A stretch of 64,000 nt of DNA from a virus: the IMG/VR virus record IMGVR_UViG_3300042502_000959, positions 3,035 through 67,034 of that record. The stretch is one strand, 5' to 3'. How positions within the stretch are numbered: position 1 is the first letter of the stretch; each line of letters starts with the position of its first letter. A model generated the notes under the pieces. It was not told where the DNA came from, ran no database searches, and saw nothing but the letters and a program-made list of their open reading frames with translations. Positions 7,901 through 61,784 of this stretch are shown in pieces. A program made the position numbers and the translations under genes.

Positions 7901-9448
7901 AAGCAATTTGAAAGGCTAACTCCAGAAGGAATCCAACAGGTTTTTGATGAAGGCTTTAATAAGGCAATGGAAGCGTTTGACGTTCAAGAGAAAAAACTAA
8001 CTCTAGAGTATGAGCTAAAGATAGCAGATGATCAAAAAATTATTGAAGATGCTCAAAATCAGATAGATGGAATAAGATACCAGCTTGACGATTACGAAGC
8101 AGATTTGCGTGGTATTGAGCAGCAAGAGGATGCTATTAACAAGACTTATGACGATAAGCTAGAAGCACTAGAAAAGGTACGCAAAGCAAATCAAAAAGTT
8201 CTTGATCAAGAAAAGGGCAAGCTATCAGTTGCAGAAGCCATTACTCGTGGCGATCTTTCTGCAGCAGCTAGGGCTATTCAGGACGTAAGACAAACTTCTG
8301 CTTCTGGATACTTCTCAAGTCAAACTGACGCACTTAACCAGGGAAGACAAAACGCCCTTGACGCAATTAGAGGCGAAAATGGACTATCTAGAATTGAAAT
8401 ACAAGAAAGAATAGAAACTCTTACAAATCAGATATTTGAAATTGAAGAAAACTCTATAGAGCCAGCAACAGAAAGAGTCCGCTTGGCTGGAGTAGAGCTA
8501 GCATCAAGAATTAAAGAGCTAGAAGTTTTGGACAAAACAAAAACTGAATGGGAAACTATTAAGAACAATATTGATTTCGCTAGAGTAAATAGTAAAACTT
8601 ACAAAGATGCAATTATAGAAGCCGAAAAAATTGTTCAAAAGGTTCTAGATGCTTGGAATGAAATTGAGAAGCCAAAGAGCACTGTTTATACAGTAACGAC
8701 AGTTCGAGAGGGAGATGTAAGCCCTGGAGGCCCAGGCGGTCCAGGCGGTCCAGGAAACCCAGGCCCAGACCCACTAGATCCAAGCGCTGACACCCCAGCA
8801 GCTCAGGCAAATAGGATTAGACAAGCATTAAATAACGCTACCACTGCCCCTAAAGTTTCTAAGGCACTTAGAGACGCAGCTGGAGTAACTATGTCTAATG
8901 CCGATAGAGCAGAGGCATTAATAAATAGCTACCTTGCAAAAATAACAAAAGCTCAGGCAGACGCTATTCTTTCCAAGGCTGGCGTTACTGGAAGAAGCGG
9001 AGGCGGAAGTAATGCTAACCGATTCTTGGCTAATGGAGGAAGGGTTATGTCCTACATGTCAGATGGGGGATCTCCGTTAGGCTCAGATACCGTACCAGCA
9101 ATGTTAACTCCTGGAGAATTTGTAGTAAGAAGACCTATGGTTAGGAAGTATGGAACAGATTTATTTAACAAGATTAACTCTGGATCCTTTAGCAATGTTC
9201 AGGGCATGTCTAGTCCAAACATTCAAAACATAACAACCCCAATGTTTAACTCTACAGGACCTTCTGTATCAGTTGATAAAAACTCTGTGCCATCTACACA
9301 AGTTCTCTCACCATCTTCGAATTCAGTGTATAATTATAACTTAAGTGTAAACGTTGCGTCTCAGTCAGACCCTAACTCAATTGCACAAACCGTGATGGGT
9401 CAAATTAGAATGATTGACTCTCAAAGAATAAGGGGCAACAGGTTCTAA
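1997..9448 (+). CDS. Tape measure protein
   Basis: 2483 aa, Ala-rich helical/coiled-coil, TP901-like core (GINASEGANALKS), hydrophobic segments, two VPAML(S/T)PGE motifs. Confidence 0.93.
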   Translation: MAEDANARIRVDIDTAAALANIKNLQRQISTFHTSLAKSSAQATASSLQLQQSLINGINKTGQFSAGIKTIKTTTDSFTNSLQKNKLSMGEYFRYSAAATKSFGRFFSSEFETINKVARERVKDLQTQYIKMGRDANGAMRAIAVRPLSLDMENLATKTQIAAQRQALLNQMLKQGSTNLLNFGKNTQWAGRQLMVGFTVPLIMLGSVAAKTFMDMEKQAVRFKRVYGEMFTTTEETNKALQDIKNLANEFTKYGVAVSKTMELAADIAATGKMGAELTAQVAETTRLAVLGGVEQAEALQATISLTDAFGVSAEDLAGKIDFLNAVENQTITSIEDLTIAIPKAGPVVQQLGGDVEDLTFFLTAMREGGINASEGANALKSGLAALINPTGKASEMLAGFGINIKGIVEANAGDVKGLVIDFASALDELAPLDRARAIEQLFGKFQFSRLSTLFQNVIKDGNQASRVLKLTNATTAELAVLSERELKKIEDSPMFKFQKALEDIKVTLVPLGEAFLKAVTPLLEFGTSVLKKFDELDEGAKGFVVGLTAIAGVIGPIFLMGFGLIANGVANVIKGFVFFKTAMNKAGSASTQLGMQTEYMTQQQLEAAAVAASLDQVHTKLKQTFTSEAAAINGLTAAYERAILKQAAFAGTPMAIGRGAKSPKKLASGILSVPGPKGAGDVVPAMLSPGEAVIPAEKAEKYRGFIQALISGNIPGFRNGTGDVDYVRAIAKREVAGSGFSSSPDEVRRQTELKSWAGMDKEMAAKKAELEKMRQEGRKISSSQERSLLKATPDAAHVKQSSYKISVAGRQVPTKSWMARSLLADDPMVNRYAAQANLEKGGGGTKSTQNALKGMMDPKGQEALAKKLGVSQKELNKQLKLLSQGISPSTAGGSKVMQELARRDPKPNQGRLAASVLKSRDDFAKKNPGKGFYETLGSRKYDPSKDEAVKKNQEAATAKADARAKAKVDKLTKAQKDESARAFAKSQEAEKAKTSATAKQASVINKETKATEKATKEKVAATKAVKENKKETVKETKAKQKLATPAGPGQSQRITARETKAGTRYYSGNKLVADQKAGQTTYNRQQGAAKGVETRRANAALRSQAPQAQQRGSGGGRAGMVGMVASGAVMGGSMLPGAAGKVAQDLMMPIMALSMILPMLPGPVAIAVAAISGLAMAAFALKGAFDTAQKEAIELTETLGSGSKAILAYAEFAGTASAGEVMDKQRANNASPFSVQQGKTTFGESFVTSEQGKGMLESLRKSVATSGSSATQAQLVNQLGTAVASGALNEAQARSIAASIGKELGNQSFGINVNAKLIEIFGPNGENLINEPLEVRVKMIEQTQDQVGATIKAGQVRSSTATPLVSEGLALSAALGATGLMANAVPVVGQVASGILLASSAAVLLGTGIAAGVDRMAKLGEVSGTNVAMGMIAMQQQQEMVDSLDLEYQKRIANAVAAGDVARAEELTTQHIRDREALLIKNAETTQMVLDNFAKQDVFFGQGAYMDAAKKAVDVAYADDPVKGQIAKGATGQIGSAALDQTQKYQMTLMLASKELDPMVATQLLSSFGNDGEQLTKVLNIMTNIGSADGNRAIALMNAFVDKDGEALPDQQKTFIANIESKTPAQAQKALAMFEEVAKLGGANVLEASVIMQFYNKNPQAQKKMEDMIEQINSYGGELTMDFVQNLVGEAQFEAFKQNQAYFESLDNEQRKDYVSAFVNTMELRGDKDMQDAWRAWQKTLPADQKARAFEDFATVTAVRVTEAGKDASAVDIEQEDTSGGGGGGPSASPLDDLLKKLRDIRKNQIGVTKGFEASANAINKLFGGGAGINLFSGIENDMRRLGAGEDLISLIAGMDPEEFEKKKNTLFNFDKQTGEIIGFKNQLKNIGKALSAIAIGQYVNQQQKQAQESKNQVLAFNQLRSSGYSVAEAYEAIQDAALAAGIVAGDYTQQQIAEMLALQRATAEAAKQFERLTPEGIQQVFDEGFNKAMEAFDVQEKKLTLEYELKIADDQKIIEDAQNQIDGIRYQLDDYEADLRGIEQQEDAINKTYDDKLEALEKVRKANQKVLDQEKGKLSVAEAITRGDLSAAARAIQDVRQTSASGYFSSQTDALNQGRQNALDAIRGENGLSRIEIQERIETLTNQIFEIEENSIEPATERVRLAGVELASRIKELEVLDKTKTEWETIKNNIDFARVNSKTYKDAIIEAEKIVQKVLDAWNEIEKPKSTVYTVTTVREGDVSPGGPGGPGGPGNPGPDPLDPSADTPAAQANRIRQALNNATTAPKVSKALRDAAGVTMSNADRAEALINSYLAKITKAQADAILSKAGVTGRSGGGSNANRFLANGGRVMSYMSDGGSPLGSDTVPAMLTPGEFVVRRPMVRKYGTDLFNKINSGSFSNVQGMSSPNIQNITTPMFNSTGPSVSVDKNSVPSTQVLSPSSNSVYNYNLSVNVASQSDPNSIAQTVMGQIRMIDSQRIRGNRF
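8727..8768 (+). repeat. Gly-Gly-Pro low-complexity repeat in tape measure
   Basis: GGPGGPGGPGNPGP, imperfect 9-bp repeat CCAGGCGGT. Confidence 0.6.
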
Positions 9449-10161: not shown

Positions 10162-13100
10162 ATGTTTGAAAGCAAAGAGCTAAACGATCATCTTAGTACT
10201 TCTTCTACAATAAAGTCTCGTGCTGCAGTTATTGCAGAATGGAACATGAATTTCTTTGAAAATATTGCAGATATTGGAAACTACAGATACCGTCCACTTC
10301 TTGGAATTGCTCAAAAATACGGATCAATACCAAACATCTATGACCCAAAAGACCTAGGAAACTTTTACACTGGCGCAACAGATGCTGATGTTTTAGTAGA
10401 TGGTGGTTTTGAAGAGGATGGCCAAACTCCAGTTGTTTTTAAACCTAAAAAAGAAAAAGAAAAACTTTTATTTTCTCTAGAAGAGTGTTTTGGAAAGTTT
10501 AGGCCAAGGTCTGGAATCAACAAACTTAGATACGGAATTACTGGAAAATACCTACATCACAGTAATGTTGACATGTTTAATCGGCCAAGATACTATATGC
10601 CAGACAAGAATGATACTTTTAAATACTGGACCTCATATAGGACTGAGGATGGAAAAGAGTACGGAATTGCAAACAATACTCTTAATGGCAATTACCACGT
10701 AGAAGATGTAGCCCCATATGTTGTATATAAAGAAGAAATTCCAGTAAACAGGATTGTTGTAAAGACGCAAACCAATGTTGGAAATGTTGATCTTGGACCA
10801 TTCTCCAACTCATCTGGAATATTTGCAGATCCATTTTTTGGAGAGGAAAATAAAACAACCCCAGTAAAATGGAAAATCCAATATCTAAAAAACAATATTT
10901 GGCTAGACGCAATTTCCTTTAATAAAAACTCTGTACGCTATAATGGCGATGCCATAATCGGAACAGATGGATACTTAGAAATTGGGTATGGACTTATTGT
11001 TCCAGATAGTTTTAGGTCAAACTTTATAAATAATGGAATCCTAGCCTCCACAACTATGCTTCCAACAGAAAATGAAAATGGTCAGGCCTACCTTGTAAAA
11101 CAAAACACGAATGACCTTGGGCGATACTATATTTGGAAAGACAGTGGCTACCTTGAATTTCACCCAGAATATGGTTGGTACGTAGTAGATGAAAACGTAG
11201 ACCAGCTTACAAACTTTGTAACAGATACAACAAGCCCTAAGAAATACAATACAGCTCAGGCTGGTATTTTAGACTATGAAGAGTTTTTGTTTATTTCAGG
11301 AATCAGGGTAGTTGTTGAAACAATGAATCGTTTTGGAGCAACCCTAGACCTAATAGAACTTTCTCCAAGACTAACAGTAGATCTAACTGAAAAAACAGTA
11401 GCATACTCAGTAACTAAAAATGCTTCAGATCTTGGGGTAAGTGGTTTGCCAGTTGGTCAGCTACTTGCATCTAATGGAGAGCTGTCCCTCTTTGACTATG
11501 ACCAGTCTTTTAATCAAAATAATATTTGGAATCCAAAAACTGGAACTGGAAGCATTATTGCAAAATACATAAACAAAAATATTCAAATAAAGTTTTATGA
11601 GATAATCTCAGATGTTACTGTCATAGATAATGAAGAAAATAAGATTAAAAAAAGTTTTTATGTTCCAATAAAAACATTGTATTCAGAATCTTTTCCACAG
11701 TCAAACCTAAAGAGTAGAGAGCTTAAGCTATCACTAAGAGACCTTTTCTTCTATTTTGAGTCTCAGTCAGCCCCAGAGCTTTTGATTCCAAACGCATCCT
11801 TGTCATACGCACTTGCAACAATTTTTGACAGCATAGGTTTTAGCAACTACTCCTTTAAAAGACTTGACGGAGAAAGCGATCCAATTATTCCATACTTCTT
11901 TGTTTCTCCAGATAAAACTATAGCAGAGGTATTAAACGATCTAGCCATAGCAACACAGACCGCAATGTATTTTGACGAGTACAACAACTTTGTTATGATG
12001 AGCAAAAACTACTCCTTGCCAACTGAAGAAGAAAGGCAAACAGATGTAATTTTGCTGGGATCAAATACTGATCCAAAGTTAACCACAACAGAACAAATTC
12101 GTGATGCTCAACCAAGACAATTAGAGAACATTATAGACATAGCCTCTCAGGATAACAACATCTATAATGATGGAAAAATAAGCTATATTGCAAGATACAT
12201 CCAGAAATCTATGGGCTCAATCAAGCAGGCCTATGTAGCAGACAAAAATATTTCTTGGATATATAAGCCAGCCCTGCTTTGGGAAGTATCTGGCACAGAA
12301 AATCTAAAGCCAACAAATGGACAAACAGCTACTGGAAATAAGTATGCCCTAGCAGCTATACCACTAAATTCAGATTTAAATGATCAAGTACCAGCAGTTC
12401 TAAATCATGAACTTGTTAATAATATTATTGATTTTGGCGATGGCATTTTGTACATTGGAAGATATAACGGATACTTTTATTCTAATGGAGAGGTCGTTAG
12501 ATACGACGCAGTAGAATACAATGTTTCGGTTTTGCCATCAAGCGTGGTAGACTCTAATTTTACTGGAGGAAACGTTTGGATATCTAGTCCACAAGAATAC
12601 GAAGACTATTTTTCTAAACTTTCTTTTAACGGAAAGATTTACCCAACTGGCCGTGCAAGAATTTATGCAGAGCCAAACTATGAAACTTTTGATGGAATAA
12701 CAAGAATGTCTAATGGCTCAGTAGCCAAGCACGGTAGGGGGCAGTTTGGAACAACAGTTGTAAATCACACAGCTGGCCTAAACCCATACTGGACAAATAA
12801 TGAAAATGTTTATGGCTGTAAAATGAAGTCTGCTTATCTATTTGGAAACCTTGCTTTTGAAGGTGACACCAGTGCTGGTACAGCTGGAGTAAGCAAATCT
12901 CTAGCTACAAAAGCCTCAAGATCTAGCGTAATTAAAAACTATCTTTCTTTTTCTCATAATGAAGAAACCTCTAATAAGAATAAACTCTCTTCAACTTCAG
13001 AAACTGTTCAGGCTTCGGCTCTTGTATTTAACGGTCCGTCTTTTTCATCACAAGAAACCCCCATTGACTTTATTTCCTATGTAAACAAACCTCTTAGTGG

Positions 13101-15381
13101 TTCTTTTAAACATTTTGGAACAAGAATGAGAATTGTCGGTAAACTTGAAAATAACGAGAAATCTGTTCAAACTCCAGCTGGGGCCACAACATACTTTAAC
13201 GTTCCTACTACAACTCCAGATGAAAATAAAACTATTTCTGGGGGAAGTGGTGGAATTGCAACATTGTTAAATCCAGAAAATAACAATGGGTATTATTTTG
13301 AAATAGCAGCATTGTCAGAAAAAAACATAGACCTATATAAAAGAAGTACCCCTAACATCAAAAAAAGCATAACCCGCTTTGATGCTACCACAACCAGCGT
13401 TGCAACTGTTTATGTATCTTCCGCAGCCACTAGCTATCCAGTCGGCAGTAAGGTTATGATATCTTCTGGAAAATCTGCTACTTCTAGCCCAGTAAATTTG
13501 CCAGTATATGCATTAGGAACTTGGACTGTAACTGCAGCAACATCTACCACAATAACAATAAGTGGATCTGGGTTTACTGTTGCAAATACTACAGGAATTA
13601 ATCAAACTGAAAATATTTCTTTGGCCCCCGCTACTTATAGTGCCGATGGAATATCCAATATATTTTTCTATAAACTATTAAAAAATACCAGCTATGATAT
13701 TCAGACTCCTGTGAGAGACCCCCTAGCACTACCAACCCCAACAGCAACAAGTTTAACTTTGGACAATAATCTTCCTGCAGTTGCTACAGAAACAACTTTA
13801 ACAGCTTCAACCAACTCACCACTAATATTGCCATCTGGCAGTCTTGCTCCTTCCATCGTTCAGGCTGGGCAAAGAGTTTTGCTAAGGGGACAAACAATTA
13901 CCTCACAAAATGGTTATTATAAATTAACCAATGCTGGAAATAATCCGCCAACAATTGTTGTAACCAGCCCTACCACCTTTGTTATGCCATTGCCAACTAG
14001 CGGCACAATTCCTGATTATGTTTCTGGTGGTTATGTATCTCGGCATGTTGAAGATGGACAATTTGGTATTGCGGTTGTATATGAAATTAGTCAAATCACT
14101 AAGAACGTATCTACTTTAACCTATACAACAACGACGCCTCACGGCTATACAACTGGTAATCGTGTTATTATTTCTGGGGTAAATCCTCCAATATATAACT
14201 CTGGGCCACCATCAAAATGGGTTTTAACTAAAGATGAAGACGCAATACCAGTCAGACTTTGGAGTGGACTTTCTTCAATTATTGTTGATGACGGAAATTT
14301 TGCTGGCCAGTCTAGGGTAATAGCTGAGGAGTATACAACGGTATACGACCTTGCAATAGAGTATGAAGATCTAGAAAAATCTAGAAGATTTTACCTATAT
14401 CTAAATGATACTCAGGTTGCTGTCGTAGATGACCCAGACCCCCTTCCGCTAAATAATGCAAACAACATGTCTTTATTTGTTCGTGGTGGTTCTCACTGTA
14501 TGTTTGAAAACGTATATGCTCTAGCTAATAACTATAGTCAAAACTCAGATGTTTCTTTGGGTCCAATTGCAAATAAAATTTTTACAAATAAAACTGATAT
14601 ATCGTCTAACGAAGCATTCAGAAAATATTCAATTAACGGTATTGTCCAGCCAACCTTTCTTTCTGGAATAAGTCCAGCGCAGCCACCACAGTATAATATT
14701 TTTTATGAGGAGTTTGGAAGTATTCTTAGAGAAATGGCATACTTTAACGTCAAATATGATAAGGCATATCCAGCTTTATATTCGATGGTATCTCCAACCT
14801 TTAACAAGCTTCGTGGATATACCGTATCTGGATTTTTTGGAGGAGCCTATGGGGCAGAGTTCCTAATCTTTAATGCTACAGATACCTTCTTGTTCTTAGA
14901 TGAAACTGTAGGAAACTACCTAAGAATTCAAGGAATTACTTTTACCCAAGATTCTCGCTACGAACTAACGGTAGATAATTATTTTGAAAAAACTGCAAAT
15001 TTTGCTAACCCTCAGATAAAAGAAGATATGACTATCTTATCTCCAACTACCCAAAAAGAGCTTTACAATGATATAAAGACTAGCAGAATAACTTATGGCA
15101 GAAATCAATTCTTGCTTGACTCTATCTATATTCAAAGCGCTGATACAGCTAACAATCTGATGAAATGGATAATATCAAAAATAATGAAGCCGAGAAAATC
15201 TGTGGGAGTTAACATTTTTGCTAACCCAACAATACAGCTAGGAGATATAGTTTCTATAAACTATTCCGATAGCTCTGACGAGGTAGCCTTTGAACCAGAA
15301 AAAAGATTTGTAGTATACAGCATAGACTACGCAAAAGATTCTTCTGGACCAAGCATGAGCCTATATTTGAGTGAGGTGTAG
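10162..15381 (+). CDS. Large minor tail / tail-tip protein
   Basis: 1739 aa, beta-rich; C-terminal NPTIQLGDIV hub-type motif; tail-fibre-type GQRVLLRGQT..SQNGYY motif. Confidence 0.75.
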   Translation: MFESKELNDHLSTSSTIKSRAAVIAEWNMNFFENIADIGNYRYRPLLGIAQKYGSIPNIYDPKDLGNFYTGATDADVLVDGGFEEDGQTPVVFKPKKEKEKLLFSLEECFGKFRPRSGINKLRYGITGKYLHHSNVDMFNRPRYYMPDKNDTFKYWTSYRTEDGKEYGIANNTLNGNYHVEDVAPYVVYKEEIPVNRIVVKTQTNVGNVDLGPFSNSSGIFADPFFGEENKTTPVKWKIQYLKNNIWLDAISFNKNSVRYNGDAIIGTDGYLEIGYGLIVPDSFRSNFINNGILASTTMLPTENENGQAYLVKQNTNDLGRYYIWKDSGYLEFHPEYGWYVVDENVDQLTNFVTDTTSPKKYNTAQAGILDYEEFLFISGIRVVVETMNRFGATLDLIELSPRLTVDLTEKTVAYSVTKNASDLGVSGLPVGQLLASNGELSLFDYDQSFNQNNIWNPKTGTGSIIAKYINKNIQIKFYEIISDVTVIDNEENKIKKSFYVPIKTLYSESFPQSNLKSRELKLSLRDLFFYFESQSAPELLIPNASLSYALATIFDSIGFSNYSFKRLDGESDPIIPYFFVSPDKTIAEVLNDLAIATQTAMYFDEYNNFVMMSKNYSLPTEEERQTDVILLGSNTDPKLTTTEQIRDAQPRQLENIIDIASQDNNIYNDGKISYIARYIQKSMGSIKQAYVADKNISWIYKPALLWEVSGTENLKPTNGQTATGNKYALAAIPLNSDLNDQVPAVLNHELVNNIIDFGDGILYIGRYNGYFYSNGEVVRYDAVEYNVSVLPSSVVDSNFTGGNVWISSPQEYEDYFSKLSFNGKIYPTGRARIYAEPNYETFDGITRMSNGSVAKHGRGQFGTTVVNHTAGLNPYWTNNENVYGCKMKSAYLFGNLAFEGDTSAGTAGVSKSLATKASRSSVIKNYLSFSHNEETSNKNKLSSTSETVQASALVFNGPSFSSQETPIDFISYVNKPLSGSFKHFGTRMRIVGKLENNEKSVQTPAGATTYFNVPTTTPDENKTISGGSGGIATLLNPENNNGYYFEIAALSEKNIDLYKRSTPNIKKSITRFDATTTSVATVYVSSAATSYPVGSKVMISSGKSATSSPVNLPVYALGTWTVTAATSTTITISGSGFTVANTTGINQTENISLAPATYSADGISNIFFYKLLKNTSYDIQTPVRDPLALPTPTATSLTLDNNLPAVATETTLTASTNSPLILPSGSLAPSIVQAGQRVLLRGQTITSQNGYYKLTNAGNNPPTIVVTSPTTFVMPLPTSGTIPDYVSGGYVSRHVEDGQFGIAVVYEISQITKNVSTLTYTTTTPHGYTTGNRVIISGVNPPIYNSGPPSKWVLTKDEDAIPVRLWSGLSSIIVDDGNFAGQSRVIAEEYTTVYDLAIEYEDLEKSRRFYLYLNDTQVAVVDDPDPLPLNNANNMSLFVRGGSHCMFENVYALANNYSQNSDVSLGPIANKIFTNKTDISSNEAFRKYSINGIVQPTFLSGISPAQPPQYNIFYEEFGSILREMAYFNVKYDKAYPALYSMVSPTFNKLRGYTVSGFFGGAYGAEFLIFNATDTFLFLDETVGNYLRIQGITFTQDSRYELTVDNYFEKTANFANPQIKEDMTILSPTTQKELYNDIKTSRITYGRNQFLLDSIYIQSADTANNLMKWIISKIMKPRKSVGVNIFANPTIQLGDIVSINYSDSSDEVAFEPEKRFVVYSIDYAKDSSGPSMSLYLSEV

Positions 15382-34267: not shown

Positions 34268-36313
34268 ATGTCCGATTTTTTCTCCTTCAGACTTCCAGTA
34301 GATTTTGTTGAAAAATACACTACTGTAGAGGCACCATTTGGTTTCAAAGACGCAGGAGAAAACTCCATTGGAGAAATTACTTTTGCTAGAACTTACTCTC
34401 GCATCAAAGAAGATGGAACCAAAGAACGCTGGTATGAAGTTTGTAGGAGAGTTATCGAGGGTATGTATTCTGTCCAGAAAAATCATGCAAAAGACAACCG
34501 CCTTCCATGGAATGATTACAAGGCACAGAAGTCTGCACAAGAAGCTTTTGACCGCATGTTCAATCTAAAGTGGACCCCTCCAGGACGTGGCATGTGGACT
34601 TTTGGAACCCCACTAACAATGGAGAAGAGAAACTCTGCAGCACTACAGAACTGTGCTGTTGTGTCTACAAAAGATTTGGATAAGAACGACCCAGGAGCTT
34701 TGTTTGCTTGGGTAATGGATGCTCTAATGCTCGGCATTGGTGTCGGCTTTGATACCCTTGGACAAGATAAGGCGTTTCCAATTCACGCACCAACTGAGCC
34801 AAAGGTGGTCTACGAAATTCCAGACACTCGTGAAGGCTGGGTAGAGGCAACAAGACTACTTCTTAACTCATTCTTAAGACCAAACCAAAACATTCAGGAG
34901 CTGGACTACTCTCTTATTAGACCGCTGGGTGCACCAATCAAGGGCTTTGGAGGAACTGCTTCTGGACCAGCACCACTAAAGCAGCTTCACGAACAAATTA
35001 GCAAAGTAATTGGAGGACGTGCTGGAGAAACCCTAGACTCTCGTGCAATTGTAGACATCATTAATCTTATTGGAACTTGTGTTGTTTCTGGAAACGTTCG
35101 TCGTTCTGCCACATTAGCTTTGGGAGTAGAGGGAGACGACGACTTCTTAAACTTAAAAAATGCAGAAGCCTTCCCAGAGCGTAACAGCTATGACTCAAAC
35201 AATCCAGGCTGGGCATGGATGAGCAACAACTCTATCTCTGCTACTGTTGGCATGGATTACTCAAAGTATGTAGATCGTATTGTAGATAACGGAGAGCCAG
35301 GATTTATTTGGTTGGATGTTGCTCGTAACTACGGACGTTTGGCTGACCAGCCAGACGGTGCAGACTACCGTGTAGTAGGCTTTAATCCGTGTGCAGAACA
35401 GCCACTAGAGTCCTATGAGCTCTGCACCCTAGTTGAAGTACATCTAAACCGTCACGAGTCCAAGGAGGACTTCCTACGGACCCTGAAGTTTGCTTACCTA
35501 TATGGTAAGACCGTTACTTTGTTGCCAACTCACTGGCAACAGACCAACGGTATCATGCAAAGAAACCGTAGAATTGGAACATCCCTAACTGGCATTGCAT
35601 CATTTGCGGATGAGAATGGTCTTCCAACTGTTCGCAACTGGATGGATGAGGGGTATAACAAGATCCGTTTCTATGACAAGAAGTATTCTGAATGGTTATG
35701 TGTTCGTGAATCAATTCGTGTGACTACCGTAAAGCCATCTGGATCAGTATCCTTGCTGTCAGGTGCAACCCCTGGAGTTCACTGGGGACCAGGTGGGGCC
35801 TTCTACCTACGTGCCATTCGTTTTGGAAACACAGACCCAATGCTACACCTATTTAGGGCAGCTGGATACAGGTGTGAGGATGATCTGGTATCAGCAAATA
35901 CTACAGTTGTATACTTCCCAATTAAGTCTGGGCAGAAACGTAGCGAGAAGCAGGTCTCTTTGTTTGAAAAGATGTCTCTTGCTGCAACTGCCCAAGAGTA
36001 TTGGTCGGACAACGGGGTATCAGTAACCCTATCCTTTGACAAAGAAACAGAAAGGCAGCACGTATCATCTGTTCTTAATATGTATGAGGGCAAGCTAAAG
36101 GCTGTATCATTCTTGCCAATGGGCAACAAGGTGTATCCACAGCAACCATACACAGAGATTACAGAAGAAGAGTATGACTACTTTATTGGTCGCATTGCCA
36201 AGATTGACTTCTCTGCCATTTATGACGGGGTAGACAATTTAGAAGCACTTGGAGAATCGTACTGTACAACAGACTACTGCGAGATCAAGATTCCAGACAA
36301 GAGGGCAAAGTAA
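34268..36313 (+). CDS. nrdJ: Class II adenosylcobalamin-dependent ribonucleotide reductase (monomeric RTPR type)
   Basis: PPGRG, LQNC, GNVRRSA, NPCAEQ, ELCTL, TTVKPSG, C-terminal CTTDYC; no small subunit gene. Confidence 0.93.
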   Translation: MSDFFSFRLPVDFVEKYTTVEAPFGFKDAGENSIGEITFARTYSRIKEDGTKERWYEVCRRVIEGMYSVQKNHAKDNRLPWNDYKAQKSAQEAFDRMFNLKWTPPGRGMWTFGTPLTMEKRNSAALQNCAVVSTKDLDKNDPGALFAWVMDALMLGIGVGFDTLGQDKAFPIHAPTEPKVVYEIPDTREGWVEATRLLLNSFLRPNQNIQELDYSLIRPLGAPIKGFGGTASGPAPLKQLHEQISKVIGGRAGETLDSRAIVDIINLIGTCVVSGNVRRSATLALGVEGDDDFLNLKNAEAFPERNSYDSNNPGWAWMSNNSISATVGMDYSKYVDRIVDNGEPGFIWLDVARNYGRLADQPDGADYRVVGFNPCAEQPLESYELCTLVEVHLNRHESKEDFLRTLKFAYLYGKTVTLLPTHWQQTNGIMQRNRRIGTSLTGIASFADENGLPTVRNWMDEGYNKIRFYDKKYSEWLCVRESIRVTTVKPSGSVSLLSGATPGVHWGPGGAFYLRAIRFGNTDPMLHLFRAAGYRCEDDLVSANTTVVYFPIKSGQKRSEKQVSLFEKMSLAATAQEYWSDNGVSVTLSFDKETERQHVSSVLNMYEGKLKAVSFLPMGNKVYPQQPYTEITEEEYDYFIGRIAKIDFSAIYDGVDNLEALGESYCTTDYCEIKIPDKRAK

Positions 36314-36564
36314 TGAAACAACTATTACACTTTACTGCAACATGGTGTCAGCCATGCAAACAGATGGAAGTCCCGATTGCAATGCTTGTGTCTTCAAATC
36401 TAGATATTAATTATAATAAGATTGATGTGAGCGATGTTTTTGATGAAGCTGTTGAGTATGGAGTTAGAGGTGTTCCAACTTTTATTGCATTAAAAGATGG
36501 AATAGAAGTTGCTAGACACACAGGTGTCGCAACAAACGAAAAACTACTTAGCTTATTTGACTAA
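36313..36564 (+). CDS. Thioredoxin
   Basis: FTATWCQPCK, GVRGVPT; coupled to RNR. Confidence 0.9.
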   Translation: MKQLLHFTATWCQPCKQMEVPIAMLVSSNLDINYNKIDVSDVFDEAVEYGVRGVPTFIALKDGIEVARHTGVATNEKLLSLFD

Positions 36565-39912: not shown

Positions 39913-39984
39913 TCCTTCTTAGCTCAGCGGCAGAGCAGAGAGCTGTTAACTCTAAGGTCCCTGGTTCGATCCCAGGAGAAGGAG
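39913..39984 (+). tRNA. tRNA-Asn (GTT)
   Basis: Acceptor TCCTTCT/AGAAGGA, D-arm, loop CTGTTAA, GGTTCGATCC; no encoded CCA. Confidence 0.92.
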
Positions 39985-40038
39985 CTATTGGTGTGGTCCA
40001 TACCACTCCCACGGGTATAGGGATAAAAATGGACATCA

Positions 40039-40109
40039 GTGACTATTGCATAGTGGTAGTGCGTAACCTTGCCAAGGTTAATGTGCGAGTTCGATTCTCG
40101 CTAGTCGCT
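40039..40109 (+). tRNA. tRNA-Gly (GCC)
   Basis: Acceptor GTGACTA/TAGTCGC, anticodon arm TAACC-TTGCCAA-GGTTA, GTTCGATT. Confidence 0.9.
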
Positions 40110-40162
40110 CTGAGAGTATCCTAGCATGACTCATAAGAACCATTCACTGGGTACTCTCTTTA

Positions 40163-40236
40163 GGCTCTGTAGCTCAGTTGGTTAGAGCGCCTCCCTGTCA
40201 CGGAGGAGGTCGCCAGTTCAAGTCTGGTCAGAGTCG
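40163..40236 (+). tRNA. tRNA-Asp (GTC)
   Basis: Acceptor GGCTCTG/CAGAGTC, anticodon arm CCTCC-CTGTCAC-GGAGG, GTTCAAGT. Confidence 0.93.
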
Positions 40237-40240
40237 CAAT

Positions 40241-40316
40241 GCCTCTATAGCTCATCTGGTAGAGCGACGCACTTGTAATGCGTAGGTGACGGGTTCAAGT
40301 CCTGTTGGAGGCTCCA
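40241..40316 (+). tRNA. tRNA-Thr (TGT)
   Basis: Acceptor GCCTCTA/TGGAGGC, anticodon arm ACGCA-CTTGTAA-TGCGT, encoded CCA. Confidence 0.93.
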
Positions 40317-45593: not shown

Positions 45594-45867
45594 GTGGAAA
45601 GATGAAGGCTCGTGCAAGGGCTACGACACAAATCTATTCTTTGATAAATATGAAGAAGATATTGCCCTTCGTCCTGCGATTGACAAACTTTGTGCTGGTT
45701 GTCCAGTATCAAGGCAGTGCTTTGCTGTCGGAGTTTCTCAAAAAGAATGGGGAGTCTGGGGAGGAATATTTCTTGAAAATGGAAAAATATCTAGAGAATT
45801 TGCCAAGCATAGAAGCAAAGAACAATGGGCCGAAACTTGGAAGAGCTTAACGATGGAGGATAACTAA
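45580..45867 (+). CDS. whiB: WhiB-family transcription factor
   Basis: W...GSC..TNLFF..CAGCPV..QC..WGVWGG. Confidence 0.92.
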   Translation: MGRHEWKDEGSCKGYDTNLFFDKYEEDIALRPAIDKLCAGCPVSRQCFAVGVSQKEWGVWGGIFLENGKISREFAKHRSKEQWAETWKSLTMEDN

Positions 45868-55736: not shown

Positions 55737-56495
55737 ATGAAAAGAAAAAGGTTCATAGCAATTGGTATGATTGCACTAGTAATGACAACTGGTACTGGAG
55801 TAGCTTTTGCAGCTATGCTAGACGCAAGTGAGTCATCGAACAAAGAACTACCAGTAACACAAGTAACAAAGCCAACACCATTAATTGATTCTCCAGTAAC
55901 AACAGAAGTGGTTCTTTCGGGACCAGTTCGTTCAATTGAAGTTTCATCAGGCCCAGTGCTTAGGTCAGACGCTCCAAAGGTTGGCTCGCATGATTGGATG
56001 GCTCAGGTAAAAGCTGCAAAAGATAAGCTCAAGGCTCAGGCTGAGAAAAAGCAAAATGAGCTAGAGTCAAAGATTGCTAGGCTAGAGAAAATTGCTGCCG
56101 ACACCAAAGCCCTGAATGAGACTCTTGTCTTAGTTAAAAAACAAATTGGCATCACCCCTTGGGTTTTTCAGGGATCTGACACACGCTCCTGGGATTGCTC
56201 TGGTCTGGTCAAATGGACTTACGCTCAGCTTGGAATAGACCTGTATCACAGTGCCACATGGCAAAGATATTGGGGTGCAATTGTGACTGAGCCTAAAATT
56301 GGAGACCTAGTGTCATTCAATTACCAAAACCATTCAAGTGCCTACCACATTGGAATCTATATAGGCCCTGACGAGATGATTCATGCTGGTGGTAAGCCAG
56401 GGGACAGGACTGAGATAATTTCTATAAGCGACTGGGCAAAAGATAACTCTAATAGTGATGTTATTTATACAAGAATAATTGAAACAAATAATTAA
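55737..56495 (+). CDS. Secreted NlpC/P60 peptidoglycan endopeptidase
   Basis: Signal peptide MKRKRF..VAFA, coiled coil, WDCSGLV, YHIGIY, MIHA. Confidence 0.9.
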   Translation: MKRKRFIAIGMIALVMTTGTGVAFAAMLDASESSNKELPVTQVTKPTPLIDSPVTTEVVLSGPVRSIEVSSGPVLRSDAPKVGSHDWMAQVKAAKDKLKAQAEKKQNELESKIARLEKIAADTKALNETLVLVKKQIGITPWVFQGSDTRSWDCSGLVKWTYAQLGIDLYHSATWQRYWGAIVTEPKIGDLVSFNYQNHSSAYHIGIYIGPDEMIHAGGKPGDRTEIISISDWAKDNSNSDVIYTRIIETNN

Positions 56496-56514
56496 ATAAT
56501 GCTATAATAAAATC

Positions 56515-56796
56515 ATGACTACTCACTCTCTAATCACTCTTAGCAGTTCTGCTGCTACCCTTTTAACTCCTAATGGAGTTCACTCTGGAATGGACGTTAC
56601 CATTCAGAATATTCACGCCTCTGCCTATGTTTATATTGGTGGAGAAGGTGTAACAAGTTCTTCTTATGGATACCGCTTAAGTCCTGGATCAGCTATTTCT
56701 TTTGAGCTTCCAGGAACAGATGCCTTATATGCAATCACTAACACAAACAGCTCTCAGGTTGCAGTTATAAAGACTAACCTAGAGGCTGGTCACTAA
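56515..56796 (+). CDS. Small beta-rich protein (possible virion decoration)
   Basis: VTIQN..YVYIGG..VT.S.YGY motif; leaderless. Confidence 0.6.
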   Translation: MTTHSLITLSSSAATLLTPNGVHSGMDVTIQNIHASAYVYIGGEGVTSSSYGYRLSPGSAISFELPGTDALYAITNTNSSQVAVIKTNLEAGH

Positions 56797-57242
56797 TGGC
56801 TAGACTTAGTGGTGGTTCTGGCAATGCTGTTGAGTCAAACGGATCTTGGAACCCTAACTTTACAGATGCTTCAGGAACGCTTGCAGGAATCACTGCTACT
56901 GGAAACTACAATCGCATCGGCAACATGGTATTTTTCTGTGTGAGCGTAATATTCAATGGTTATACAAACCTAGGTACTGGCCAGTATCAGTTTGATTTAC
57001 CATTCCAGCCAAGACAGACCTTTACTTCTCGTGGAGGAACTCTACACAACCCCAATACTGATTCTAGGTATCACATTGCTTCTATCGTAGACATTGTGGC
57101 TGAGGGGCCAAATGCAAAAGCAAAGCTTTACTACTCAGGCAGCACTACTGATCTTGCTTGGAAGTACAACACTCCTGTCAGCTGGGCACATAATACCGCC
57201 CACTTTGACATGTCTGGTTTCTACGAAATACTGCCTTCTTAA
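56796..57242 (+). CDS. Tail-fibre-tip-like beta protein
   Basis: GSWNP..GNYNRIGNMVF..LPF..SGFYE pattern. Confidence 0.55.
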   Translation: MARLSGGSGNAVESNGSWNPNFTDASGTLAGITATGNYNRIGNMVFFCVSVIFNGYTNLGTGQYQFDLPFQPRQTFTSRGGTLHNPNTDSRYHIASIVDIVAEGPNAKAKLYYSGSTTDLAWKYNTPVSWAHNTAHFDMSGFYEILPS

Positions 57243-57276
57243 AGGATATTTTATTCTAAGGTATCTTAACCTTTAC

Positions 57277-57305
57277 TTGACATCCATCCCCATATCCTGT
57301 ACAAT
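57277..57305 (+). promoter_or_regulatory. Sigma70/SigA promoter of putative B12 operon
   Basis: TTGACA-17-TACAAT, ATG 6 nt downstream. Confidence 0.8.
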
Positions 57306-57311
57306 ATAGGT

Positions 57312-57527
57312 ATGACAAATACTGATGATGGAATCGACGATTATTTTAACAATCATTGGCTTAACAACCAATCCATTAACCCACAAGATCGGGTTTCTAT
57401 GCATATCCAGAATATTGCCAAGGTAAAGCAAGAAGAGCAAGAACGCATCATTCAATTGCTTGAAGATAATCTTGGTAACATGGACCTAAACGATTTACTA
57501 AAACTAATTAAGGAAGAAACAAAATGA
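57312..57527 (+). CDS. Hypothetical protein
   Basis: 71 aa, EQERIIQLLE motif. Confidence 0.65.
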   Translation: MTNTDDGIDDYFNNHWLNNQSINPQDRVSMHIQNIAKVKQEEQERIIQLLEDNLGNMDLNDLLKLIKEETK

Positions 57528-57985
57528 ATAAGGCAACTATAGCAATTGGAGCAGTTCTGGGTATTCTGACAACTGGAATTGTATTTCATAATGTCAATGC
57601 GGACTGTGTTAATGTCTATGTAGACTATGGGACACTTAAAAATAATGAAAAGATTGAAGAGTGTATTGCGGTAAATGGAAAAACTAATGCCTTGGATCTA
57701 TTGTCTACCGCTGGGTTTACCACAGAAGGAACTGTAGAATACGGCGAAGCAATCCTTTGTAGGTTAAACAATCTTCCAGATGCCACAGCAGAGACTTGCG
57801 AGAGTATGCCGCCAGCCGAGTCTTACTGGGGTGTCCTTGTAAAAGAACATCAGGTTGTTCCAGTTCCCCTTGGAATCACTGGGGCATGGGGATGGGCCCA
57901 AACAGGCATTGATGGTGTATACTTGAATCCTGGAGATTCGCTAGGGCTAGTCTTTGCAGATAACGGAGAAGTAAGATTTCCATGA
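57524..57985 (+). CDS. Secreted/anchored DUF4430/transcobalamin-C-like (putative cobalamin-binding) protein
   Basis: N-terminal hydrophobic helix; VYVDYG, NALDLL..AGF, ILCRLNNLP, YW, W.WAQTGID..LNPGDSLGLVF beta-grasp pattern. Confidence 0.55.
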   Translation: MNKATIAIGAVLGILTTGIVFHNVNADCVNVYVDYGTLKNNEKIEECIAVNGKTNALDLLSTAGFTTEGTVEYGEAILCRLNNLPDATAETCESMPPAESYWGVLVKEHQVVPVPLGITGAWGWAQTGIDGVYLNPGDSLGLVFADNGEVRFP

Positions 57986-58152
57986 AAACAATAACAGATA
58001 AGTTTGATGCAATTATTGAATATCAAGACTTTAAGAAGCAAAGCTGGATAGAGGCTACCACGCCCTACCTCCAGGTTGCTTTTAGCCTTCTTGCACTATT
58101 TGCATCTAACGATCTGTTGGTTACAATCTGGCGTTCGATGACGGGACACTAA
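57982..58152 (+). CDS. Small single-TM protein (56 aa; not in ORF track)
   Basis: ATGA overlap upstream, TAATG coupling to pduO; YLQVAFSLLALFA..LLVTIW. Confidence 0.6.
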   Translation: MKTITDKFDAIIEYQDFKKQSWIEATTPYLQVAFSLLALFASNDLLVTIWRSMTGH

Positions 58153-58739
58153 TGGTAAACCTAACTCGAATTTATACTAAGACTGGTGATGATGGCACTA
58201 CCTCTTTGGGGGACATGAGTCGTACATCAAAGAATGATCCAAGACTTGAGGCTTTTGCCACGGTAGACGAAGCCAACTCTGTCATCGGAGTAGCCATTCT
58301 ACATGTAGTTAACCAAGACGTTAGGAATATCCTTAATCAGATACAGAATGACCTGTTTGATGTAGGAGCAGACTTATGTACACCAGTGATAGATAATCCT
58401 CCTGTAGAGCCTCTGAGAGTTACTGAGGGCCAAGTTAGCAACCTTGAGTCCCAGATAGACAGATTCAATGCAGAGCTGGATTCTCTCAGGTCTTTTGTTA
58501 TTCCTGGAGGAACTGCCTCATCTGCCAACCTGCATGTTGCTAGGACTGTAGCTCGTCGTGCAGAAAGACTTACCTGGAATGCTATTCACCAATTTGGCGA
58601 GGGTGTAAGTAAACTAACCGCAAAATATTTAAACAGACTATCAGACCTACTATTTGTATTAGCTAGGTATGAGAATAAGTCCGTAGGAGACGTCTTATGG
58701 GTTCCAGGAAAAAATACATTAGGAGAAACAAATGGCTAA
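58152..58739 (+). CDS. pduO: ATP:cob(I)alamin adenosyltransferase, PduO type
   Basis: IYTKTGDDGTT, VDEANS, QNDLFD.GADL, FVIPGG, RTVARRAER, YLNRLSDLLF. Confidence 0.95.
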   Translation: MVNLTRIYTKTGDDGTTSLGDMSRTSKNDPRLEAFATVDEANSVIGVAILHVVNQDVRNILNQIQNDLFDVGADLCTPVIDNPPVEPLRVTEGQVSNLESQIDRFNAELDSLRSFVIPGGTASSANLHVARTVARRAERLTWNAIHQFGEGVSKLTAKYLNRLSDLLFVLARYENKSVGDVLWVPGKNTLGETNG

Positions 58740-58830
58740 AATGGCAAGCCTTCATGCCGAAGGACTAACAGACGAAGATCTAGAATCTGCAGAAATTGCT
58801 GAAATTCTAGAAGAGATATTTGTAGACTAA
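58732..58830 (+). CDS. Small acidic protein (32 aa; not in ORF track)
   Basis: AGGAG RBS; MAKMASLHAEGLTDEDLE... Confidence 0.5.
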   Translation: MAKMASLHAEGLTDEDLESAEIAEILEEIFVD

Positions 58831-58831
58831 T

Positions 58832-58996
58832 ATGGATAAGCAAATCATTAAAGACAGTATAAAGATTGGACTATTGATTGTAGCTATCCTATTTATATTT
58901 GTAGTAGCCTTACCTTTTATTGTAAGTGATGAGGCAGATAGGCTAATAATTGAGTATGGCTTAGATCAGTGGGTTCGAGACCTACTTGGAAGATAG
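58832..58996 (+). CDS. Small single-TM protein (54 aa; not in ORF track)
   Basis: MDKQIIKDSIKIGLLIVAILFIFVVALPFIV... Confidence 0.5.
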   Translation: MDKQIIKDSIKIGLLIVAILFIFVVALPFIVSDEADRLIIEYGLDQWVRDLLGR

Positions 58997-59782
58997 AGCT
59001 GGATTTACGATAGATCTCTTACCAGCTATTAGCTCTTCGATATCCTGGCAAATGATAGCCCACTCTTCTTCAAAGATTTTTTTAGAACGACCAGGCCCAA
59101 TGCCAACCTTGCCACCAGAATCAGCTGTTGCCTCTTTAACAGTTTTTTCAACATCAATATTTAAAGTTGTGCACTGATAATGCTTGTGAACATATCCGTC
59201 TTTGTCAATTAGGTACTTCTCAAAGTTGCCACCCATCTGGTCTCCATTATAGAACCCCATGTTTAGCCAGTAAGAATAATACTTATCCTTAAACATTGTT
59301 TCTGGGTCAAGGCCGCTTTCTTCTATCTTACTTTTTGCAGTCATTTGATGATCTTTGATTGTCAGGTAAAGTTCGTGTGGATCACCATTAGGTTGGTTTA
59401 GACCATTGTGTCCTGGCTCTACGTTGAGCTGCTTGCTGACACCGCCACTAGGGATAGAAGAAACCATTTCAGAAAATTGGAAAGTAGTTCCATAAACATC
59501 TTTGCCATAGTTTGCGGAATCTAGTCCACAGGTAATTCCTTGAGACCACTTGCCATAGGTGATACCTGGCCCACAGTAATCATTTGTTGGAATAGCAATA
59601 ATTTGAAAGTATTGGCCACCGTACTTTTCCTGTAGCCATTGCAAAACTTCCATTTGGTTGGCATTTCCGCATCCGACAGTAGTGTTGACCACAATAGCGG
59701 CCTTGCCCTTAAACTGCTGTAAAAAGCCTGACTCTCCGTCTGCAGAATTTAGCTCAATATCATAGATAGATTTTAATGTCAT
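58982..59782 (-). CDS. Glutathione-peroxidase-family protein
   Basis: KGKAAIVVNTTVGCG, IIAIPTNDY, GNFEKYLIDKDG; GGAGG RBS. Confidence 0.8.
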   Translation of the reverse strand: MTLKSIYDIELNSADGESGFLQQFKGKAAIVVNTTVGCGNANQMEVLQWLQEKYGGQYFQIIAIPTNDYCGPGITYGKWSQGITCGLDSANYGKDVYGTTFQFSEMVSSIPSGGVSKQLNVEPGHNGLNQPNGDPHELYLTIKDHQMTAKSKIEESGLDPETMFKDKYYSYWLNMGFYNGDQMGGNFEKYLIDKDGYVHKHYQCTTLNIDVEKTVKEATADSGGKVGIGPGRSKKIFEEEWAIICQDIEELIAGKRSIVNPALSSK

Positions 59783-59839
59783 TTTGAATGACCTCCTGCT
59801 TTAAATTATAGCAGTATTTTCAGGGTATAAGTTAGGCAA

Positions 59840-59868
59840 TTGACAATGGCTCTGAAGTATAGTATAAT
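59840..59868 (+). promoter_or_regulatory. Consensus sigma70/SigA promoter (divergent from peroxidase promoter)
   Basis: TTGACA-17-TATAAT. Confidence 0.85.
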
Positions 59869-59890
59869 TGACATAAGAGAAAGATAAAAC

Positions 59891-60088
59891 ATGGAAAGCA
59901 CTAAAAGAAGTTTAGTCAAGACCCTTAGCTGGGAGTTTGTTCACCTTGTTATTATAGCAGGAGTAATCTACATAATCACAGGAGAATGGGAGTATGCCAC
60001 TCTGGGAGCACTTGTATACATTGCCTGGGAAGCTGTAGCATACTTCATCCACGAGCGTATCTGGTCTAAGTTCGTAAAGATCAAGTAA
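59891..60088 (+). CDS. DUF2061 membrane protein
   Basis: ES.KRSLVKTLSW...YFIHERIW. Confidence 0.8.
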   Translation: MESTKRSLVKTLSWEFVHLVIIAGVIYIITGEWEYATLGALVYIAWEAVAYFIHERIWSKFVKIK

Positions 60089-60090
60089 TA

Positions 60091-60300
60091 GTGGCCAGCA
60101 AAAAACGTTCGTTAGCTAAGTCCATAACCTGGAGACTCATAGCTATATTTGTGACATTTGCAGTTGGGTTTGTCATGACTAACAGCTGGGAGTTTGCGGC
60201 TTCCCTATCTCTAGTATCAAATCTTATTAACTTTGTACTGTATTACATCCATGAAAGATTTTGGCTTAAGGTTGAGTGGGGAAAATCAAGGGTATCTTAA
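60091..60300 (+). CDS. DUF2061 membrane protein (paralog)
   Basis: KRSLAKSITWR...YYIHERFW.KV.WG. Confidence 0.8.
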   Translation: MASKKRSLAKSITWRLIAIFVTFAVGFVMTNSWEFAASLSLVSNLINFVLYYIHERFWLKVEWGKSRVS

Positions 60301-60321
60301 AAGACCCACTATAATTAGTGT

Positions 60322-60531
60322 ATGGTTTTAACTCAAGAATGTCCTACCTGCCAAAAGACTATGGTACCAATAGTTTATGCACATAGGACGCCAGATCTCC
60401 AGAAGATGGAGAATGATGGTGTAATTAAGGTAGCTGGGTGCCAAGCTTATATTGGCTACACCAATGGTCCAACCCTTTTTTGTAATTCATGCAGAGACAC
60501 TGTTTGGCCAGGCCCCGAGGATGTTGCTTAA
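60322..60531 (+). CDS. Zn-ribbon protein
   Basis: CPTC..VPIVY..GC..CNSC. Confidence 0.7.
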   Translation: MVLTQECPTCQKTMVPIVYAHRTPDLQKMENDGVIKVAGCQAYIGYTNGPTLFCNSCRDTVWPGPEDVA

Positions 60532-61106: not shown

Positions 61107-61784
61107 ATGGAAATTAAACGTACCGTACTACCTCCCTATGGAGGGCCAAGAGAAGACTCTGGGGCCAACGGCAGTCTCTGGTCAATGGGTGGCAAAATTA
61201 TTGGTAGCTCAGGAGCTGAAGATAACAGAGTCGCTGTTCCGATGCTGATTGGCCTTACTGCCTCACAAGCACTAGAAGCACTTGAGAGTGTTGGTTTGAT
61301 TCCTGGCCCAAGCACAACAACTTTCGGGGCAACTGAGGGTAATGATGGCACGGTAGCTGCACAGGCCGAACTAGCTAATACTTTGGTAAATGTTGGGACC
61401 ATAGTTTCGTATGCTATTTTTGAGTATACGGCACCACCCGCCGCACTTGTTGGTCCAACTACTAACTGGCTAACTGCTTTTGGAGGTAAATTTATTTTAC
61501 CTTCCACGATCTACCCTGAGCCAGAAACAGAGTGGGCTGACATTGTTGCTAACCCAATTGCATATAGCTTAGTTATTGAAGGCGGGCCACTGGCTGGCAC
61601 TTACCCCATTAGCGAAGCACTTCAGTTTGGCCCAACAGCACCTGGGATAGTTGCTCTTTCGGTTGATACTCTAGAATTTGACTTTCCAGATCGATTGATA
61701 GGTCTTGAGGGAGCTGAAATGTCTTACTGGGTTGGCAACGGGTGGGCACCTACGGCTGGTACTGCATCTATAGTTTTATCCTAA
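61107..61784 (+). CDS. PASTA-domain protein
   Basis: VPMLIGLTASQA..AL.SVGL..GTVAAQ..NTLV..GT.V. Confidence 0.7.
   Translation: MEIKRTVLPPYGGPREDSGANGSLWSMGGKIIGSSGAEDNRVAVPMLIGLTASQALEALESVGLIPGPSTTTFGATEGNDGTVAAQAELANTLVNVGTIVSYAIFEYTAPPAALVGPTTNWLTAFGGKFILPSTIYPEPETEWADIVANPIAYSLVIEGGPLAGTYPISEALQFGPTAPGIVALSVDTLEFDFPDRLIGLEGAEMSYWVGNGWAPTAGTASIVLS

Follow-up and report, generated by a model that had tools for sequence, protein, structure and literature searches.

A candidate cassette for corrinoid capture and adenosylation linked to class II ribonucleotide reductase in viruses

The nrdJ-cbrS-cbrT-pduO cluster of Lactobacillus delbrueckii, with its energy-coupling factor (ECF) transporter ECF-CbrT, was read by its authors as a system of vitamin B12 uptake and activation for the ribonucleotide reductase (RNR) NrdJ, according to the passages of PMC5997447 that treat the cluster. 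In viruses, the cobalamin auxiliary metabolic genes (AMGs) cobS, cobT and cobA appear in metagenomic lists, and phages with a class II RNR depend on host B12. A passage of PMC10547690 suggested that viruses encoding the class II enzyme RTPR might "regulate or enhance B12 uptake", and an AMG catalogue includes a viral cob(I)alamin adenosyltransferase among its entries (PMC11183165). In this study, we analysed a stretch of 64,000 nucleotides (nt), called the window below, which forms positions 3,035 to 67,034 of the 67-kb IMG/VR virus record IMGVR_UViG_3300042502_000959 (completeness estimate, 62%). The window contains a cassette for a predicted exported protein of 153 amino acids (aa), a 56-aa membrane peptide and a PduO-type adenosyltransferase, and the gene for NrdJ lies 21 kb away. 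We think it reasonably probable that the products of this cassette capture corrinoid on the surface of the cell and convert it to the adenosylated form for the phage NrdJ, where we infer both the binding and the effect on uptake.

Among the arrangements described so far, the L. delbrueckii cluster is the nearest one, as it is presented in those passages of PMC5997447. The order of genes is shared: a class II RNR, then two small genes related to transport, then PduO. Unlike that cluster, the cassette sits on a phage, and the position of cbrT is taken by a peptide of 41-61 aa with one hydrophobic stretch, too small for an ECF S-component of about 160-210 residues and six helices. The cassette also differs from the viral cobalamin AMGs in having an exported corrinoid-binding candidate. 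In the literature searched, supplementary AMG tables lying outside the search, we found neither a phage-encoded candidate for corrinoid capture described nor the peptide, which ends in WRSxTGH. A preliminary description of this locus had regarded a phage B12-binding protein linked to PduO as undescribed. That view stands for the linked protein, while viral adenosyltransferases are already present in AMG lists, as in the entries of PMC11183165. The genes on which the proposal rests are as follows, in window coordinates:

57524-57985, + strand: 153-aa predicted exported protein, transcobalamin-beta/DUF4430-like, candidate for corrinoid capture (fold, hhalign, conserved Cys)
57982-58152, + strand: 56-aa membrane peptide ending in WRSMTGH (phage-only family)
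58152-58739, + strand: 195-aa PduO-type cob(I)alamin adenosyltransferase (PF01923, TIGR00636)
34268-36313, + strand: NrdJ, 681-aa class II RTPR-type RNR, presumed user of the cofactor (PF17975, PF21995)
about 36316-36555, + strand: thioredoxin directly 3' of nrdJ (PF00085, E 1.1e-15; coordinates converted from the Pfam match)

Enzymes of the cassette and gene linkage among viruses

The identity of both enzymes was examined with profile searches. The 195-aa protein matched PF01923 with 206.5 bits against a cut-off of 24 (E 4e-61, positions 1-170 of 171) and TIGR00636 (PduO_Nterm) with 184.6 bits against 108.45. These results identify the product of 58152-58739 as a bona fide PduO-type adenosyltransferase on profile evidence, as the preliminary description had put it. 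NrdJ matched PF17975 (RNR alpha) with 104.2 bits against 26.4 and PF21995 (B12-dependent RNR insertion) with 60.2 bits against 27; its score for TIGR02505 (RTPR), 334 bits, fell just below the equivalog cut-off of 340.05. By these matches, NrdJ is an RTPR-like reductase of the adenosylcobalamin (AdoCbl) type. It gave the sole RNR-barrel match in the 67-kb record, and the PF00085 match lies directly downstream, in agreement with the earlier statement that the only RNR is of class II and accompanied by a thioredoxin.

Relatives of the 153-aa protein are encoded on 149 IMG/VR contigs, and all viral locus counts given here rest on the best 80 of the 149. Many of these loci are near-copies, and clustering at 80% identity reduced them to 29 clusters. 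In this study, we found that pduO lies directly downstream in 67/80 viral loci, within 116-340 nt. The upstream nrdJ ends at most 60 nt before the 153-aa gene in 31/80 loci, with two more at 350 nt. Counted per cluster, pduO was present in 26 and an adjacent nrdJ in 14. Ten further long contigs without adjacent nrdJ were inspected; eight carry a class II RNR elsewhere, and the other two are 47-50% complete. The preliminary description had named a different fold, or a lack of co-occurrence with nrdJ and pduO, as speaking against its interpretation; the co-occurrence was recovered in related viruses, and the predicted fold given below likewise agrees with it. As judged from sequence comparison, the conserved core consists of the 153-aa gene, the peptide gene and pduO.

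The trio spans two types of NrdJ, with 62-84% and 28-31% identity to that of the window, and two types of PduO, with 63-84% and 44-49% identity (one 56% match is cut at a contig end). It was kept while its proteins diverged to 45-65% identity, and the overlapping start and stop codons are conserved among relatives. The surroundings vary. In the window, the cassette follows tail and lysin-type genes; in another viral locus (L062), it lies between RecA/SSB and PD-(D/E)XK nuclease/RuvC genes, that is, in a replication and recombination block.

In 78/80 viral loci, an open reading frame (ORF) of 41-61 aa, the peptide gene, begins where the 153-aa gene stops, on that gene's stop codon, and runs up to the start of pduO. 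The preliminary description had noted a 56-aa single-transmembrane protein ending in His; it now proves to belong to a conserved family ending in WRSxTGH. The peptide has a basic N-terminus, a hydrophobic helix of 19-22 residues, in which polar residues (Q, T, N, D) are conserved at some positions, and the C-terminal WRSxTGH. W50 and R51 are invariant, G55 and H56 occur in at least 90% of sequences, and a WRxxxGH ending was found in 77 viral loci. Positive charge was heavier on the N-terminal side of the helix in 23/26 sequences, so that an N-in/C-out topology is predicted by the positive-inside rule. The peptide was present in none of the 117 cellular loci examined and matched no family in Pfam or NCBIfam. 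It was kept beside the 153-aa gene even in loci without pduO, which points to it as the closest partner of that gene. A complex prediction for the peptide and the mature domain of the 153-aa protein scored 0.00; its controls were not run, and it counts neither way on binding. Two variants were observed. One, of 80 aa (L047 6589-6831 and L053 1238-1480), has WR..GH in mid-chain and a second hydrophobic stretch, and occurs in loci without pduO. The other (L008 5205-5390) ends in VWRVVTCNC, with Cys in place of the terminal His.

The 153-aa protein and its cellular relatives

The 153-aa protein had no match in Pfam, PHROGs or NCBIfam, nor in the PDB sequences by either phmmer or profile searches. 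The blastn search of the cassette region against GenBank phages gave no match, and tblastn found the 153-aa gene in 0 of 50,697 GenBank phage records, of which 15 had PduO matches. When genome contigs were scanned, the viral alignment recovered no relative, and an alignment of five sequences did. The family, well conserved and with members of about 150 aa, numbered 95 relatives at first and 262 after exhaustive phmmer (E ≤1e-3). A hydrophobic N-terminal segment was present in 41/44 family members and a lipobox in 0/44, which is consistent with the earlier description of the protein as exported, by a predicted signal. Four Cys are invariant or nearly so across the family, and the C-terminus follows the consensus GDSLGLVFADNGEVxFP.

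The fold was predicted with AlphaFold2 from 44 sequences. The model had a predicted local distance difference test score (pLDDT) of 85.3 and a predicted template modelling score (pTM) of 0.75, with confidence of 91-97 across most of residues 31-150, except for the loop 110-120. In a Foldseek search of the PDB, ranks 1-13 went without exception to transcobalamin, to the beta domain of transcobalamin in isolation (5no0, apo; 5np4, with cyanocobalamin bound) or to 3u7z, a DUF4430 structure, and intrinsic factor followed at ranks 23 and 38. The probabilities were 0.95-1.0, and the TM-score against 3u7z was 0.74. Among the viral structures of BFVD, weak ubiquitin-like resemblances alone were found (E ≥0.18). 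Profile comparison was then made between 129 family domains and 25 canonical DUF4430 domains taken from Actinomycetota genomes. hhalign aligned the two profiles over 98 columns with a probability of 94.9 and an E-value of 4.5e-8. With the template reversed, the E-value was 0.5, and the observed score of 47.6 compares with at most 19.1 among 30 templates with shuffled columns. The alignment pairs the stretch YG..V.R.NG.P, an aromatic W ahead of the last strands and the end G.....L..GD...L.F. These results show, from sequence and model, that the 153-aa protein belongs to the DUF4430/transcobalamin-beta superfamily, as a diverged member that has export signals. The DUF4430/transcobalamin-C-like pattern noted in the preliminary description is therefore right at the superfamily level, though below the Pfam threshold.

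The predicted fold and the homology over 98 columns are shared with the beta domain of transcobalamin and intrinsic factor and with DUF4430 (3u7z). The 153-aa protein differs from these in its four conserved Cys, in lacking an alpha domain in cis and in an insert some 15-20 residues long, modelled with low confidence (110-120). The beta domain of human transcobalamin alone was crystallised with cyanocobalamin, as stated in the entry title of 5np4. A comparison with BtuH of Bacteroides as a transcobalamin-like protein was dropped; the words transcobalamin, intrinsic factor and DUF do not occur in PMC8941943.

The distant relatives are lipoproteins or anchored proteins of high-GC actinobacteria. 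Sequence relatives by phmmer include the SCO2322/SCO2321 families (NF040672, NF053823, PF28005), which are likewise anchored and lie ahead of ECF genes. They differ from the viral proteins, in which a helix, either signal or anchor, takes the place of the lipobox and which are followed by the phage-only peptide and pduO instead of ECF genes. The 153-aa protein itself matched neither NF040672 (the SCO2322 family) nor any other NCBIfam family. An Aurantimicrobium homologue scored 21.1 bits for NF040672 against a cut-off of 85, and Streptomyces-like relatives scored about 34 bits. PF28005 (Pfam 38.1) is a precomputed label on three relatives and on 27% of one Atlas cluster. The SCO2322/SCO2321 families are themselves uncharacterised, and no mention of SCO2322 was found in the literature search.

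The cellular homologues carry lipoprotein signal sequences, and their neighbourhood was examined in 80 Microbacteriaceae loci. A fused EcfT-ATPase-ATPase protein (CbiQ family plus two ABC_tran domains) follows the lipoprotein gene in 78/80 loci, a 255-aa polytopic membrane protein comes next in 72/80, and a convergent B12-dependent metH adjoins in 67/80, most misses being contig ends. The model of the 255-aa protein (pLDDT 84.4) had its best matches among S-components, namely 4huq_S, 4hzu_S, RibU, PanT and FolT; the probabilities reached 1.0, and the E-values were about 0.1. By gene content and model, all components of a dedicated ECF transporter operon are present in this neighbourhood. The link between DUF4430-type domains and cobalamin ECF transporters that had been assumed earlier was borne out as an ECF operon context of the cellular homologues.

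Some relatives are fused to alpha/alpha toroids, for example a protein of 1032 aa (P0158), and the alpha domain of transcobalamin has a fold of this class. A toroid plus a beta-like domain is the two-domain plan of transcobalamin. In a Streptomyces-like genome (L201 5310-10592, - strand), we found genes for an SCO2321-like alpha/alpha-toroid membrane protein, an SCO2322-like beta protein, a 446-aa protein and fused ECF ATPases; the separate toroid and beta-domain genes resemble a split transcobalamin. In another genome (L200), an SCO2322-like protein and a canonical DUF4430 protein are encoded about 6 kb apart (7134-8177 and 13436-14137, + strand). PF14478 (DUF4430) was found in 53/301 sampled Actinomycetota genomes, and some DUF4430 domains lie in giant multi-repeat proteins (L162-L186; ORFs of 1312-1902 aa).

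In a quick maximum-likelihood tree, built from 121 domains, the 29 viral rows fell into one clade (SH-aLRT 100). A group with support of 95 contains this clade together with 21 rows that belong to Aquiluna, Pontimonas, Aurantimicrobium and uncultured Microbacteriaceae. Since the tree was midpoint-rooted and the alignment is short, a single capture of the viral gene from this aquatic Microbacteriaceae lineage is likely, not proven. In five genomes of the lineage, CbiC (a marker of corrin synthesis), PduO-type adenosyltransferase, CobA-type adenosyltransferase and the RTPR insertion domain were not found, and metH and the ECF operon were. The record has a WhiB-family gene at about 45595-45768 (+ strand; PF02467, E 1.9e-13), a family characteristic of actinobacteria and of actinophages, which marks an actinobacterial host. 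Both this gene and the tree placement fit the actinobacterial host suggested in the preliminary description.

Operon layout and neighbouring genes

The cassette is part of an unbroken chain of six ORFs of 71, 153, 56, 195, 32 and 54 aa at 57312-58996 (+ strand). The junctions along the chain are, in order, ATGA, ATGA, TAATG, an 8-nt overlap and a 1-nt gap. The other features of the chain are the following:

57277-57305, + strand: promoter-like site TTGACA-17-TACAAT (11/12 matches; ends 6 nt before the first ATG)
57312-57527, + strand: 71-aa ORF, start of the chain, lineage-specific (no Pfam family)
58732-58830, + strand: 32-aa acidic ORF overlapping the end of pduO (not conserved)
58832-58996, + strand: 54-aa hydrophobic ORF, end of the chain (not conserved)

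The 71-aa ORF had a tblastn match in 1/80 related loci, at a different position there, and the 32-aa and 54-aa ORFs were each matched in 0/80. By this comparison, the 71-aa ORF is outside the conserved module, and its earlier listing as an operon member was not upheld. The previously given extent of the operon, 57277-58830, was correct as to its ORFs, except that the chain runs on through the 54-aa ORF. With 6 nt between the promoter-like site and the first ATG, the transcript would be leaderless. The region 56400-60400 contained 10 promoter-like sites against a shuffle mean of 10.6, that is, no enrichment. The claim that one promoter drives translationally coupled genes therefore holds for the overlapping ORF chain and the near-consensus site, and a single promoter is plausible, not demonstrated. 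No terminator-like site was found downstream of the chain.

A gene for a 266-aa protein converges on the cassette at 58982-59782 (- strand) with a 15-nt overlap with the last ORF; its first 70 residues alone match glutathione peroxidase (profile positions 1-65 of 108). A perfect 12/12 promoter-like site, TTGACA-17-TATAAT (59840-59868, + strand), lies ahead of the genes of two membrane proteins, 65 and 69 aa long, that are arranged in tandem and resemble each other (59840-60300, + strand). For the PASTA domain, which is typical of cell-wall sensing proteins of Gram-positive bacteria, the 225-aa protein at 61107-61784 (+ strand) scored 21.7 bits, below the cut-off of 23.2. Elsewhere, the window has four tRNA genes at 39913-40316 (+ strand; Asn-GTT, Gly-GCC, Asp-GTC and Thr-TGT; Rfam and ARAGORN agree) and, on its left side, two very long ORFs of 2483 and 1739 aa (1997-9448 and 10162-15381, + strand).

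Proposed function and alternative explanations

Aquatic Microbacteriaceae, the nearest cellular lineage, import B12 for MetH. In such a host, with no adenosyltransferase or RTPR found in the five genomes searched, a phage that brings NrdJ must also bring adenosylation, and it gains from better scavenging. We therefore considered how the cassette may act. The 153-aa protein would be exported, held at the outer face of the membrane and bind cobalamin or another corrinoid as the isolated transcobalamin beta domain does. The peptide would insert N-in/C-out, which would place its WRSxTGH end beside the beta-like domain; there it may tether or complete the binder, or dock it to the host ECF transporter. 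Corrinoid entry into the infected cell would rise via the host transporter, PduO would adenosylate the imported corrinoid, and AdoCbl would load the phage NrdJ for the supply of deoxynucleoside triphosphates. The thioredoxin encoded beside nrdJ would be the reductant of NrdJ.

A more specific version, in which the beta-like domain and the peptide form a minimal two-piece "viral transcobalamin", appears doubtful to us. In transcobalamin, a His of the alpha domain plays the role of axial ligand or lid. In the two-piece version, the terminal WR..GH of the N-in/C-out peptide would provide the axial ligand of cobalt (the terminal His) or a lid on the corrin, and the complex, once loaded, would be passed by the membrane helix to the ECF transporter of the host. 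One peptide variant ends in TCNC instead. If this version is true, a peptide of about 50 residues replaces a whole alpha domain or S-component to hijack vitamin import.

Several observations weigh against corrinoid capture as the function of the cassette. The binding of corrinoid by the 153-aa protein is deduced from models and sequence, not demonstrated. PF14478 gave no match for the 153-aa protein up to E 1 and none in the whole record; among 116 distant relatives, it gave one sub-threshold match (18.3 bits; cut-off, 23.8). E-values from Foldseek were modest, 0.008-0.12, and hhalign with the 44 close sequences alone was weak (probability 29.7, E 5.6e-4). An adjacent pduO is absent in 13/80 viral loci. 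Eight records without it were searched whole; one has pduO elsewhere, and it was not found in the remaining seven, each 13-44% complete. The viral loci are not independent events, because all viral copies form one clade. In cells, one bacterial family alone supplies the adjacency to metH, which may be synteny by descent. The host is deduced from one midpoint-rooted gene tree, and the five lineage genomes include incomplete metagenome-assembled genomes of unstated completeness. The phage encodes no transporter, and any gain in uptake would therefore depend on the host system. Lastly, neither the window nor nine cellular loci yielded a cobalamin riboswitch, and 3u7z was deposited as a "putative metal binding protein".

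The last two points bear on the alternative that has survived best, in which the 153-aa protein binds a non-corrinoid ligand, such as cobalt or another metal or another ECF-type micronutrient, and its link to pduO and nrdJ is indirect. 3u7z is the closest small structural match, and the model of the 255-aa protein fits ECF S-components generally, not a B12-specific one. Against this, there are two separate associations with B12 enzymes, nrdJ/pduO in phages and metH in cells. The other top structural matches bind corrinoids, including the cyanocobalamin-bound isolated beta domain, and relatives are paired with or fused to alpha/alpha toroids, like transcobalamin. We consider a non-corrinoid ligand unlikely.

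The exported protein and the peptide could also act on the host ECF lipoprotein or transporter without supplying B12 to the phage, for example by receptor masking, superinfection exclusion or shutdown of host uptake. The likely descent of the viral gene from a host surface lipoprotein in the tree, the phage-specific peptide with polar residues inside its helix and the position of the genes after tail and lysin-type genes in the window are consistent with this possibility. Small modulators of membrane proteins often have polar residues in their helix. However, the pair sits tightly between nrdJ and pduO across many lineages, the copy in L062 lies inside the replication and recombination block, and a block of B12 uptake would starve the phage's own NrdJ. 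These points make an action of this kind distinctly unlikely.

PduO-type enzymes transfer AdoCbl straight to client enzymes, and the gene order puts the 153-aa protein between both enzymes. The protein could remain inside the cell and serve as a corrinoid chaperone, passing cobalamin on to PduO or NrdJ. The hydrophobic N-terminal segment of 41/44 family members, the four near-invariant Cys, as expected of extracytoplasmic disulfides, and the lipoprotein signal sequences of the cellular homologues argue against an intracellular location, and we regard it as very improbable. Least probable of all is that the arrangement is functionally meaningless, its synteny inherited from one ancestral phage: the single viral clade makes the locus counts non-independent, but the trio has outlasted the divergence of its proteins, changed neighbours and two types each of NrdJ and PduO, and its start and stop codon overlaps are conserved.

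Corrinoid capture and adenosylation for NrdJ is thus the explanation that we favour. Class II RNR phages are abundant in aquatic viromes, and B12 is a scarce vitamin that microbes exchange. A passage of PMC10547690 raises the question of whether these phages only rely on host B12 or actively acquire it. The cassette, present on at least 149 viral contigs, is a concrete and testable candidate for active B12 acquisition by phages. It would give a first functional handle on the actinobacterial SCO2322/SCO2321-ECF systems as probable corrinoid importers and would inform B12 scavenging by streamlined freshwater actinobacteria. It would also point to a new micro-peptide family that may act on transporters. 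Since the candidate host lineage would use B12 for MetH only, with no adenosyltransferase in the genomes searched, the phage would import a whole cofactor branch, consisting of capture, adenosylation and the client enzyme.

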